Shown here one piece after another: positions 57,761 through 60,754 of a DNA stretch of 64,000 nt. Source of the stretch: Rickettsiales bacterium. GTDB taxonomy: Bacteria > Pseudomonadota > Alphaproteobacteria > Rickettsiales > RGZB01. Position numbers and translations under genes: made by a program. The notes beneath the pieces are model-generated. The model saw only the letters and a list, made by a program, of their open reading frames with translations. It was not told the DNA's origin and made no database searches. Location of the stretch: the NCBI GenBank assembly GCA_044356525.1, contig JBIKVZ010000005.1, positions 1,130 through 65,129 on the forward strand. Reading direction: 5' to 3'. How positions within the stretch are numbered: the first letter of the stretch is position 1; the number at the start of each line of letters is the position of its first letter.

Positions 57761-59122
57761 ATGTCCACAATCAGAAAGAAAAAAGCCATGCTATGGGCGG
57801 AAACATCTGCGGGTGCTGGTCACATGCAGGTTATCGCGCAAATGGCAAAAGAGCTTGGCGCAAAGGGATTTGAAGTCACCGTTGTCACCAGTTCAATGGA
57901 TGTTGGAAAGACGTTTGATTATGGTGATGCCAAAGTTTTGGAATTACCACAAATCAAGGTTACGCCTGCACCTACGAATCAAGAGCCTTTCACATTCAGC
58001 ACCCACCAAGGCCAATTTCATGCAGAAAGCATGGATGCATTTATGGCATATCTGTCTGAATTGCAGACTACTGGCCAAGCACAACATGGTACGGAAGAAC
58101 CAACCCTTATCCATGCCCACAGCGCAAATGATTCTGGTGATTGGAGAACAGGATTAGGCGACTATTTGGCTGAACGTCAGAAAATTCTCAGAAATTATTT
58201 GCGCCGTGAAAAACCTGATGTGGTGGTGACTGAATTTTGGCCGATAGGTCGTACAAACTCAAATGTAGAGATGGTTCCACTCATGGGATATATCCACCAT
58301 TCGCAGCAAAGGCCGTTGGTGTTTTCTATCGAAAGAGATGTGCTTTTTACCCAGCCATTCAAAAAGCTAGGTGCAGATGGTACGGACGCGAGGGCATATC
58401 ATACCAACCAATATGTTGATGCGGTTATTGTGCGGGGTGATGACAAGTTTATCAAGCTGGGCGATACATTCCCGCCTATGTCCCAAATTACTAAGCCAGT
58501 GTATTACGCGGGGTATTTTGCGAAGCCATTGCCACCAAGGCAACCTATGCCTGATGATGAGCGGGAAGTGTTGGTTTCAGCAGGTGGTGGATTCAGAGCG
58601 CAGGACATGCAGCTATACACGGCGGCAATTAATGCAAGGGAGCTAACCACACTAAAAGATAGAACATGGCGGTTATTGATTACACCAAATTGCTCCGATG
58701 CTCTTTTTGATGAAATAAAAGAGACAGCGGCAAAGAAGGGCAGTGGGATTATCGTAGAGCGTAACCGCCCTGATTTCAAACAGCGCCTTGCCAATGCTGC
58801 ACTATCCATATCCCAAGGCGGATATAATACCACCCTTGAGGCTGCATCTTGTGAGACACCGGCGATTATCGTTCCCGCACTTGACAGCGCAAATGGGGAG
58901 AATGAACAGGTGTACCGTTCTCAGCGTTTTGAAGAAAAAGGTCTACTATCCACCGTGTCTCAAGAGGATGCCAATAATCCAACACTCTTTGCAGAAAAGA
59001 TAAACCAGGTGTTAGCGCGTCCTAAATCTGCGCAAATGAGCGTGCAACTTGATGGTGCAAAATGTGCCGCTGAATTTATTGACCAACAAGTGTGCGAGCG
59101 CTCTTTGCGAAGGTCTGCGTAG
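57761..59122 (+). CDS. GT-B glycosyltransferase (family 28 C-terminal / COG4671-like)
   Basis: N-terminal SAGAGHMQVIAQMAKELGAKGFEVTVVTS. C-terminal donor-binding block LVSAGGG...ISQGGYNTTLEAASCETPAIIVP..ENEQVYRSQRF. Confidence 0.7.
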   Translation: MSTIRKKKAMLWAETSAGAGHMQVIAQMAKELGAKGFEVTVVTSSMDVGKTFDYGDAKVLELPQIKVTPAPTNQEPFTFSTHQGQFHAESMDAFMAYLSELQTTGQAQHGTEEPTLIHAHSANDSGDWRTGLGDYLAERQKILRNYLRREKPDVVVTEFWPIGRTNSNVEMVPLMGYIHHSQQRPLVFSIERDVLFTQPFKKLGADGTDARAYHTNQYVDAVIVRGDDKFIKLGDTFPPMSQITKPVYYAGYFAKPLPPRQPMPDDEREVLVSAGGGFRAQDMQLYTAAINARELTTLKDRTWRLLITPNCSDALFDEIKETAAKKGSGIIVERNRPDFKQRLANAALSISQGGYNTTLEAASCETPAIIVPALDSANGENEQVYRSQRFEEKGLLSTVSQEDANNPTLFAEKINQVLARPKSAQMSVQLDGAKCAAEFIDQQVCERSLRRSA

Positions 59123-59128
59123 GTCATT

Positions 59129-60754
59129 ATGCCACTTAAACTGCTCATACTCCATGAACATGACAAACAGGGACTTAAGCGAGATGAAGCCTATGGCCTG
59201 CGTGATGAATTGCAGAAAATGGGGCATGAAGTCACGCTTGTAAATGTAGGCAAGGCAAAGATTGTTGGTGAGCATATTGAGTGTGAAGGAAAAACCATCA
59301 ATCCGTCCGATTTTGATGGTGCAACACTACGCGCCAGCGCACGCAGATTTGGAGACTTAGCTCGTGTTTTAGAAAGAAACGGTGTCTCCATTTATCAGGA
59401 TGTGGATTTGACCATTGCCGGTGGTGATAAAATCGCCAGCCAGCAAATTTTTGAGCGACACAATATACCAACCCCAAAGACTTTCTGCTTGCCCCATAAC
59501 ACACCATATAACCAGCCTGCGCTAAACCAGTTCTTATATGCGCTAGGTGACTCCACCTATGTTGTAAAACAGGCGTTAGGTTGGTCTGGTAAGCAAGTAT
59601 CTATCCAGCATGATAAATCCAATGTGCGCGATTTATTCCGCCAGTGGCATGAGCAATCCGCACAAGAGAAAAAGGGTGGTGTGTTGGTGCAGGAATTTAT
59701 TGAATCAAACCCTGAGCGCCGGAGAGATTACCGCGTTCAAACGGTGGTGGGGGTGAATGGTAAGGGCGAGTTGGAATCCAAGGTAGTAGCGGCAATTGTG
59801 AGAATTGCACAGCATGGAGAAAGAATTACCAACGTATCCCGTGGTGCAGATGAGGTGCGTGTTGCACTGGATGAACAAGAAGCCTTTGAGCATCACGTTA
59901 CCAAAGGAAAAATGCCGCCAGATGAATTTAAGCGCAAGGTAGAAGCGGGGGAAATTCACATATTGCCGCCAGATGTACGCGATGTTGCAAATCAAATGGG
60001 CAAAGCATTTGGCACTGGAATGTGGGGGCATGACATCATTGTTGATTTACAGGAGGGAAAAGCGAAAGCGTTGGAGGTAAACCCATTTGCGGATAACAGC
60101 ACCTATGAAAGCCTACATGGATTTAGCTTGCACAAGCCATGGGCGGAAGCGTTCGCTGGCTATGTCGCACATCAAAAACACTCCAAAGAATTGAGCGTTA
60201 AGCCTAAACTGAGGATTGTGCTTGCATCACAAAGCCCCGTTAAACTTGAGGCTTTGAATAAGGCGTTGTTAGCAAAAAACATCTATGCAGAGGTGGTGGG
60301 CGTTGCTGCGGAATCAGGTGTGCCAGCGCAACCAATGAATGAGCAAACATTACAGGGGGCAAAGAACCGCCTTACACACGCACGTCACATTGTCCATGAT
60401 GCTGATTTATACGTTGCTATCGAAAATGGCTTATTTGAAGAGGAAGGGCGCTTCTTTGATAAAGCTGCGATACTGACCGAAACTAAAGATGGAAGCCAGC
60501 GCACCACCTATTCAAAAAGCATAGAATGCCCCGCCGAATATGTAGAAGAAGCTCGCCGCAGAGGGTTTGACACCACCACCGTCGTGCAGTCATGGCAGAG
60601 AAAAAAAGCGCAATCTGACCCCACCTTTGCAGACGCAGCGAGAGATTTTCGCCTCACTCAGCTTGCAGATGCTCTTTCAGAAAACCTAGGCGGTGCGCTG
60701 GGCTGGACAGGCGAGCGCAGCCAACCAACCTCCTTTGCATCAAGGCTTGCATAA
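59129..60754 (+). CDS. Fusion protein: RimK-like ATP-grasp ligase (N) + YjjX/PF01931-like inosine/xanthosine triphosphatase (C)
   Basis: The N-terminal ~345 aa carry GDKIASQQIFERHNIPTPKT, VVKQALGWSGKQV, GVLVQEFI and ALEVNP. The C-terminal ~190 aa carry IVLASQSPVKLEAL...GVAAESGVPAQPMNEQTLQGAKNRLTHAR...YVAIENG, which parallels E. coli YjjX ([30 protein letters not shown]). Confidence 0.65.
   Translation: MPLKLLILHEHDKQGLKRDEAYGLRDELQKMGHEVTLVNVGKAKIVGEHIECEGKTINPSDFDGATLRASARRFGDLARVLERNGVSIYQDVDLTIAGGDKIASQQIFERHNIPTPKTFCLPHNTPYNQPALNQFLYALGDSTYVVKQALGWSGKQVSIQHDKSNVRDLFRQWHEQSAQEKKGGVLVQEFIESNPERRRDYRVQTVVGVNGKGELESKVVAAIVRIAQHGERITNVSRGADEVRVALDEQEAFEHHVTKGKMPPDEFKRKVEAGEIHILPPDVRDVANQMGKAFGTGMWGHDIIVDLQEGKAKALEVNPFADNSTYESLHGFSLHKPWAEAFAGYVAHQKHSKELSVKPKLRIVLASQSPVKLEALNKALLAKNIYAEVVGVAAESGVPAQPMNEQTLQGAKNRLTHARHIVHDADLYVAIENGLFEEEGRFFDKAAILTETKDGSQRTTYSKSIECPAEYVEEARRRGFDTTTVVQSWQRKKAQSDPTFADAARDFRLTQLADALSENLGGALGWTGERSQPTSFASRLA

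Follow-up and report, generated by a model that had tools for sequence, protein, structure and literature searches.

The stretch analysed here, a 64,000-nucleotide window of contig JBIKVZ010000005.1 from a Rickettsiales bacterium (positions 1,130 to 65,129 of the contig; coordinates without a locus name are those of the window), carries beside a tRNA-Tyr gene a ~6.3-kb island with two co-directional genes, one for a GT-B glycosyltransferase (GT) and one for a fusion of a RimK-family ATP-grasp amidoligase with a PF01931 (YjjX-like) domain. Comparison of these genes with their relatives argues strongly, at the level of sequence, that GT and ligase function as a conserved pair; the pair is extremely rare, and it rides on small integrative elements. 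The island and its cargo comprise the following features.

54910-54995, forward strand: tRNA-Tyr (GTA), called by ARAGORN and Rfam; left flank of the island and probable integration site.
54928-56520, reverse strand: large serine recombinase of 530 amino acids (aa), with the Pfam domains Resolvase (85.3 bits), Recombinase and Zn_ribbon_recom.
56754-57611, reverse strand: MerR-type helix-turn-helix (HTH) protein with a DUF2292-like C-terminus, 285 aa (MerR_1 23.0 bits, cut-off 21.6; DUF2292 26.2 bits).
57761-59122, forward strand: GT-B glycosyltransferase, GT1/GT28-like, 453 aa (PF04101).
59129-60196, forward strand: RimK-family ATP-grasp amidoligase module, aa 1-356 of the fusion (Pfam RimK, NCBIfam, Foldseek).
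60209-60754, forward strand: PF01931 (YjjX-like) domain, aa 361-541 of the fusion (Pfam, 73.3 bits), with A400 at 60326-60328 and Q406 at 60344-60346.
60763-61164, reverse strand: small-terminase-like or transposase-type HTH protein, 133 aa (PHROGs terminase small subunit families, E 6e-9).
61330-61388, no strand: hairpin with 21-nt arms, 95% complementary, and a 17-nt loop (inverted-repeat search).

The open reading frame (ORF) of the GT ends at 59122 and can be read from an upstream ATG at 57704 (472 aa) or from 57761 (453 aa); we prefer the second start because homologues align from its residue 2-3 and a GAGGGG ribosome-binding site lies 7 nt before this ATG. The TAG stop at 59120-59122 and the ATG of the fusion at 59129 are separated by 6 nt, and the fusion gene (59129-60754, forward strand) encodes 541 aa, in which Pfam places PF08443 RimK at aa 100-251 (36.4 bits, cut-off 21) and PF01931 (NTPase_I-T) at aa 366-490 (73.3 bits, cut-off 25). 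Together with the match of the GT to PF04101 Glyco_tran_28_C (36.4 bits, cut-off 22), these hits, with which NCBIfam agrees at the family level, bear out the domain architectures proposed in a first-pass annotation made from the bare sequence. The same annotation had described the closely spaced pair as island cargo, in agreement with the ORFs, the tRNA-Tyr and the three-domain serine recombinase found here, and had named a stop or frameshift near 60180 as the mark of a sequencing artefact. The junction (~60190-60210) is an open frame with a linker of ~5-10 aa, the exact 541-aa protein is encoded on contigs of four samples, and the three contigs for which DNA was available are 100% identical to the window across 2-9 kb. 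Because assemblies from four samples carry the identical fusion, it is not an artefact.

Relatives were sought in a word-indexed set of 5.8 billion clusters, by exhaustive HMMER search of 1.84 billion representatives, in 185,579 species genomes and in 2.9 million viral contigs; the proteins and loci found are cited by P and L numbers. The word-indexed search returned five relatives of the fusion, four of which match its ligase half at 41-46% identity. In P0003 (817 aa) and P0005 (832 aa), a homologue of the window GT is fused N-terminally to the ligase, and P0007, added by profile search, corresponds at locus L014 to an 800-codon GT::ligase frame containing one TAG. L001 encodes GT and ligase separately, with an intervening 82-aa gene. 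The occurrence of the two proteins as a single chain in three other lineages (P0003, P0005 and P0007/L014) is the reason for our strong expectation that they act together.

The ligase family is small. Exhaustive search yielded 11 representatives at E<1e-30, beyond which the scores fall to those of generic RimK proteins; since none of the 11 has a C-terminal extension, the PF01931 fusion is specific to the lineage of the window. Among the species genomes, the ligase profile matched a single metagenome-assembled genome (MAG), that of L014. The whole fusion as query against genome contigs, a first metagenome scan with the ligase profile, and the ligase, PF01931 and GT profiles against the viral contigs all found nothing, and a third word-indexed search with the new family members added only P0018 and P0028. 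A pair this rare, and carried on mobile elements in its relatives, is not the common housekeeping cluster that the first-pass annotation had set against its own proposal of an unusual system. That proposal joined three parts, which fared differently: the link between GT and ligase emerges stronger than had been claimed, owing to the fusions in other lineages, and the PF01931 domain is unique to one lineage, leaving GT plus ligase as the core.

The core is not intact everywhere. At L005 (4441-6365), the central ~220 aa of the GT are deleted and the ligase is intact, which, together with the nonsense codon at L014, shows that some hosts can do without the module or have inactivated it recently. 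The L014 codon (9947-9949) is a GAG to TAG change, so that the frame reads 'SQP*WEH' where homologues have 'SQPEWEH'. A protein of ~80 aa stands in the GT-ligase operons of L001 (9740-9988) and L003 (13742-13984); the two copies are 42% identical and share the motif KAWY...ITDYG.V.ASGYG. Pfam, PHROGs and PADLOC gave no match for it, and it does not occur in the window or at L004 and L014. We considered it as a LysW-like carrier and rejected the idea, as its C-terminus is neither acidic nor conserved and most loci lack it.

The elements that carry the pair could be delimited in two relatives. At L001, a 61-nt repeat of the tRNA-Ser 3' end (407-467 and 13608-13668, 97% identical) flanks a 13.2-kb element with a tyrosine integrase, the GT, the 82-aa gene, the ligase and two unannotated genes. 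At L005, an exact 17-nt repeat of the tRNA-Ser(gct) 3' end (1271-1287 and 7522-7538) bounds a 6.25-kb element with a tyrosine recombinase, a resolvase, the GT remnant and the ligase; a degenerate third copy of this repeat lies at 7738-7754. Tyrosine integrases 62-75% identical to that of L001 also adjoin the cargo at L004, which has a primase-helicase as well, and at L014, where a tRNA-Trp follows the cargo directly. In the window, the same cargo sits beside a serine recombinase unrelated to the integrases of the relatives, at tRNA-Tyr. The GT-linked subclade of ligases thus rides on small integrative elements with unrelated recombinases, and these differences, together with a GC content of the hosts from 32% to 52%, lead us to conclude that the module moves between element backbones and between hosts. 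Attachment-site repeats were found neither for L014 nor for the window island, where tRNA-Tyr has no repeat downstream; for the latter, none is expected with a serine recombinase.

In the window island, distant NCBIfam matches of the serine recombinase are CcrB, CcrC and XisF. The final ~22 codons of its gene run into the 3' part of tRNA-Tyr (54928-54995), and a contig from another sample, L011, stops at 54939 within the tRNA, which may mark a variable junction. The 285-aa MerR/DUF2292 protein is, from its domains, a candidate regulator or directionality factor. The gene for the 133-aa HTH protein, whose score to Pfam HTH_Tnp_1_2 is slightly under the cut-off, faces the fusion gene tail to tail, their stop codons 8 nt apart; with this small terminase (TerS)-like gene and the recombinase, the island looks minimally satellite-like. 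In the 467-nt gap past the last island gene, the hairpin at 61330-61388, present as a single copy in the window, is possibly the island end, an operator or a terminator, and a second, terminator-like hairpin follows at 61568-61605. Just past the island lies a gene for a DUF1559 or N-methyl pseudopilin-like protein with a weak H-X9-DG hint (61632-62801, reverse strand), of a family typical of Planctomycetes and Verrucomicrobia and unusual for this host; a PMT_2 (GT-C) gene adjoins it from ~62878 onward on the forward strand. These two genes may reflect horizontal transfer or a larger island.

Elsewhere, the window encodes VirB4 followed by four tandem VirB6/TrbL paralogues (9581-19424, reverse strand), the layout of a Rickettsiales-type type IV secretion system (T4SS), in keeping with the earlier description of the host as T4SS-bearing. 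Beside these genes stands a split rRNA operon with 23S and 5S and without 16S upstream (20035-23426, reverse strand). The host also carries a GapR gene and ankyrin-type genes. Taken with the T4SS and the split rRNA operon, the GapR gene indicates an alphaproteobacterium of Rickettsiales-like kind.

Structure prediction gives the ligase module a RimK-like three-domain fold. In the AlphaFold2 (AF2) model, the predicted local distance difference test score (pLDDT) exceeds 90 for aa 1-350, and the best Foldseek matches are RimK 4iwx (template modelling (TM) score 0.82), 5zk6 and 7qys and LysX/ArgX 3vpd and 5k2m, all at a TM-score of ~0.8. The Mg/ATP-site columns K101, K147, E189, D302, E316 and N318 are conserved relative to RimK-like proteins. 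By likeness in fold, layout and active site to the clade of RimK (the ribosomal protein S6:L-glutamate ligase), LysX, ArgX, MptN and CofF, the module would be expected to use ATP to join a glutamate-like amino acid to a carboxylate. In contrast to that clade, with which it shares 18-20% identity, the module has a family-specific two-helix insert of ~30-40 aa (aa ~247-290) and falls below the NCBIfam cut-offs of rimK_fam (77.5 against 143.4), LysX (60.7 against 275.6) and MptN (53.3 against 350; E 2e-14). Where the known clade partners with S6, LysW or RimA/B, this ligase is partnered with or fused to a GT, is island-borne and is here joined to PF01931; no rpsF, LysW-like or RimA/B-type neighbour was seen at any ligase locus examined. 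Against the viral structures of BFVD, Foldseek returned generic viral ATP-grasp folds only (TM-score at most 0.63).

Similarly, the GT combines a familiar fold with great distance from any named family. It shares with the GT1, MurG (GT28) and MJ1255 families a GT-B fold, an N-terminal glycine-rich loop with histidine (GxGH) and a C-terminal nucleotide-sugar-binding motif (GGYNTTxE), and both motifs are kept across its own family. Its best sequence-profile matches in the PDB are the GT1 natural-product enzymes YjiC, CalG4 and OleD, and also MurG; Foldseek of the AF2 model (pLDDT 72) recovers generic GT-B proteins, with MurG giving the top TM-score, 0.70. Identity to any solved structure is ~11-17%, and to the GT partners of the ligase at L001, L003, L004 and L014 it is 25-29%. 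The protein lies far under the cut-offs for murG (23.7 against 250.25), MGT and the MJ1255/VC2487 family TIGR00661 (28 against 195.9), and differs from known GT1 and MurG enzymes by a disordered insert of ~50 aa in the N-domain (aa ~95-128).

The PF01931 match spans profile positions 1-124 of 162 and falls below both equivalog cut-offs (TIGR00258, 62.2 against 117.1; NF003459, 60.5 against 175), with an E-value of 8e-10 to the YjjX structure 1u5w. Like YjjX (1u5w, 1u14, 1zno), the domain keeps K372, SGV, QP, N404, T407, GA.NR, D426 and E432.G, and in a comparison of 22 sequences it retains nearly all conserved positions. Unlike YjjX, it is fused to a ligase rather than standalone, and no other sequence compared shares its A400 (in 'SGVxEQP') or its Q406 (in 'N[DE]ET'), these columns being occupied by E or D in all 21 relatives that cover them and in three PDB YjjX/VC0702 sequences. 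Maf proteins, whose fold is related, bind the catalytic metal through a conserved Glu and an Asp, and changing the Glu to Ala removes most of their activity (PMC3899018). Given the replacement of two family-invariant glutamates and this analogy, hydrolysis may be impaired, and we suggest that the domain may bind a nucleotide, recruiting or sensing it, rather than hydrolyse it. The active ITP/XTP-type module of the first-pass annotation is therefore not to be assumed.

The C-terminal third of the domain belongs, in comparison with YjjX, to a divergent subclade that it shares with P0006 and with standalone genes at L018-L021. Identity is 43-45% to P0006 and L018 and 38-45% across the standalone genes. 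P0006 (L007, 10001-11305) is itself a fusion of a phosphoribosyltransferase with PF01931, from a gammaproteobacterial MAG; at L018 (7033-10372), the PF01931 gene lies between, and overlaps, genes for a CobS-like AAA and a CobT-like VWA protein; and at L019 (570-1585), it overlaps an MJ1255-type GT gene. For this last GT, hhalign gave no significant match to the window family (probability 1.4%), so that the two can be called alike in broad type only. Likewise, P0019 and P0006 do not come from one organism (GC content 61% against 42%, tetranucleotide correlation ~0). At the superfamily level, the parts of the module belong to RimK-type ligases, GT1/GT28 GT-B enzymes and PF01931, and every equivalog-level test failed.

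Neighbours of the ligase family offer clues to its substrate. A NUDIX gene lies directly upstream of the ligase-family gene at L017; at L055, the ligase ends an array of deoB, HIT and luciferase-like genes; and at L003, an AlkB-like 2-oxoglutarate-Fe(II) oxygenase and a 2280-aa protein with a DHH/DHHA1 phosphoesterase domain (1961-8803, reverse strand) stand upstream of the GT::ligase. Counting the fused PF01931, nucleotide phosphohydrolase folds of four superfamilies thus occur beside the ligase family. Elsewhere, the ligase is found near a nonribosomal peptide synthetase (NRPS)-like A-T-TE gene with short-chain dehydrogenases/reductases (SDRs) and Amdase (L051) and with a PaaK/CapK-like adenylating enzyme and an outer-membrane beta-barrel (L053); among the neighbours examined, none points to a protein substrate. 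On the strength of the Nudix, HIT, DHH and PF01931 partners, the neighbourhoods moderately favour a small, nucleotide-linked substrate, each association being a single case. The nucleotide-linked target proposed in the first-pass annotation thereby gains support of an indirect, comparative kind.

Taken together, these observations lead us to posit, as a tentative account that we hold with rather less than even confidence, that the two enzymes form a mobile module which decorates one small, probably nucleotide-linked molecule with a sugar and a glutamate-like amino acid. The GT and the fusion would be co-transcribed cargo of the ~6.3-kb island, mobilised by the serine recombinase at tRNA-Tyr. 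The GT would move a sugar from a nucleoside diphosphate (NDP)-sugar onto a small molecule, and the ligase would use ATP to couple an amino acid, probably glutamate-like, to a carboxylate of the same molecule, so that the two enzymes would share one substrate or one short pathway. The acceptor is probably linked to a nucleoside, nucleotide or nucleotide-sugar, and in the lineage of the window the ligase has captured a YjjX-like purine-NTP-binding domain that would serve as a nucleotide-binding appendage. On this account, the module would be an accessory passed from one small integrative element to another, for example as conflict or fitness cargo, rather than a housekeeping function.

Several observations weigh against this account. 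The nucleotide-hydrolase neighbours represent four families at one locus each, and chance may account for some of them; the role of deoB is housekeeping, and at L003 the DHH gene is on the other strand and more than 1 kb away. The closest solved structures of the ligase, RimK and LysX/ArgX, modify protein C-termini rather than small molecules. The PF01931 fusion, confined to one lineage, may be an add-on that says little of the core chemistry, and the AF2 model of this half is unreliable (pLDDT <55, one homologue in the alignment). Lastly, because the GT is broken at L005 and a nonsense codon interrupts the frame at L014, either the ligase is not strictly GT-dependent or the module is easily lost.

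The structural precedent just mentioned is the starting point for what we consider the least improbable rival, though still an unlikely one, in which the pair works on a protein: the ligase would attach glutamate or a different amino acid to a carboxylate of that protein, and the GT would glycosylate it as well. Candidate targets are translation or ribosomal proteins of the bacterium and, if the pair is secreted by way of the T4SS, proteins of a eukaryotic host. RimK (including its complex with RpsF, 5zk6) and LysX/ArgX with LysW all act on protein C-termini, the ~80-aa protein conserved in the L001 and L003 operons could be read as such a partner, and the T4SS and ankyrin-type genes of the host, like the unannotated K/N-rich, effector-like neighbours at L001, would suit a secreted target. 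However, the ~80-aa protein is missing from three of the loci, including the window, and lacks the acidic, conserved C-terminus; partners of the rpsF, LysW or RimA/B type were not seen at the loci; and members of the ligase family outside islands lie near small-molecule enzymes (NRPS-like, PaaK-like, HIT, Nudix). The RimK family also includes cofactor ligases, among them MptN, whose profile the module matches, and the nearest sequence relatives of the GT glycosylate small molecules or lipids.

The MurG likeness of the GT raises a different prospect, to which we assign a low probability: remodelling of envelope precursors, in which UDP-MurNAc-peptide or lipid II is modified or a uronic acid of a surface glycan is amidated, as cargo akin to that of serotype conversion. 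Surface-modifying cargo is frequent on mobile elements. The best Pfam match of the GT is the C-terminal domain of MurG, which also gives its top TM-score; there are weak matches to the 'sugar-transfer associated ATP-grasp' and to archaeal pseudomurein ATP-grasp proteins; and the ligase of L053 is accompanied by a PaaK/CapK-like enzyme and an outer-membrane beta-barrel. Conversely, no membrane protein, flippase, polymerase or transporter is found in the cargo of any locus, the murG equivalog score is a small fraction of its cut-off, PF14397 (the sugar-transfer associated ATP-grasp) scores 21 against a cut-off of 31.4 for the fusion and gives weak or faint matches for its relatives, and UDP-linked precursors are not the expected ligands of a purine-type PF01931 domain.

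Equally doubtful is that the pair is a new system of anti-phage or anti-element defence, or of counter-defence, that makes or destroys a modified nucleotide, with PF01931 as its sensor or house-cleaning partner. Its setting would fit: the pair is cargo of small tRNA-integrated elements with different recombinases, some of the elements have satellite-like features (the primase-helicase at L004, the TerS-like gene in the window), nucleotide-hydrolase partners recur, and patchy distribution with frequent decay is typical of conflict genes. Neither PADLOC nor PHROGs matched the pair, though, and the 2.9 million viral contigs held no relatives; no recognisable defence genes adjoin it, the more distant members of the ligase family occur in ordinary or biosynthetic contexts, and the hosts, as uncultured and probably intracellular bacteria, offer no experimental handle. 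We regard it as very improbable that the pair is decaying or neutral hitch-hiking cargo, functionless in this host, as the damaged copies at L005 and L014 and the two lost glutamates of PF01931 might suggest, given that both window ORFs are intact, the ATP/Mg-site residues of the ligase and the donor motif of the GT are kept, the sequence is 100% identical across samples, and the spacing of the two genes suggests translational coupling.

How far the module departs from what is known can be judged against two kinds of precedent. Assembly of murein and pseudomurein precursors and the pathways to peptidyl-nucleoside antibiotics bring a GT and an ATP-dependent ligase together with a nucleotide moiety, and the claim of the first-pass annotation that no described pathway does so was too strong. 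Like these pathways, the module would have a nucleotide-linked scaffold receive a sugar and one or more amino acids; unlike them, it consists of two genes, without export, immunity or membrane steps, and no specific homology to them was found. PMC11915815 is a reference on such pathways. More generally, the coupling of ATP-grasp amidoligases to GTs is already established in comparative genomics (Pfam PF14397). The PF14397 operons resemble the module in linking an ATP-grasp amidoligase to GTs in the genome, with amino-acid-decorated sugars or metabolites as predicted products, and differ from it in that the module forms a separate clade, is far rarer, lies on mobile elements and is often fused to the GT. 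Neighbourhoods of amidoligases with glycosyltransferases were reportedly catalogued by Iyer and co-workers in 2009. As a specific system, the module has no counterpart in the resources searched, as had been anticipated: with GT, fusion, P0003 and accessory proteins as queries, PADLOC-DB v2 returned no family at E<=0.01, PHROGs gave no match for the GT or the fusion, and the literature searched (YjjX/PF01931 with ATP-grasp, and ATP-grasp with GT in anti-phage systems and in Rickettsiales) held no description of it.

The furthest-reaching version of the account, which we offer as a long shot, is that the module, with its changing nucleotide-hydrolase partners (YjjX-like, Nudix, HIT), is an unrecognised mobile pathway making a glycosylated, amino-acylated purine nucleoside or nucleotide, which would be a new class of conflict molecule derived from nucleotides (a toxin, a signal or a protective modification), in which a hydrolysis-impaired YjjX would serve as the nucleotide-binding subunit of the ligase. 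Function aside, the Rosetta-stone fusions provide a firm, testable link between an orphan clade of GTs and an orphan RimK-like clade, and a ligase family of about ten sequence clusters is small enough to be characterised in full. If the ligase::YjjX protein works as suggested, it would clearly exemplify the conversion of a house-cleaning NTPase fold to ligand binding. And if the product is a decorated nucleotide or nucleoside, the module could prove categorically new, and would be a minimal two-gene route to a new class of metabolite, spread by very small integrative elements through host-associated Alphaproteobacteria, a group for which little is understood of the mobile cargo.

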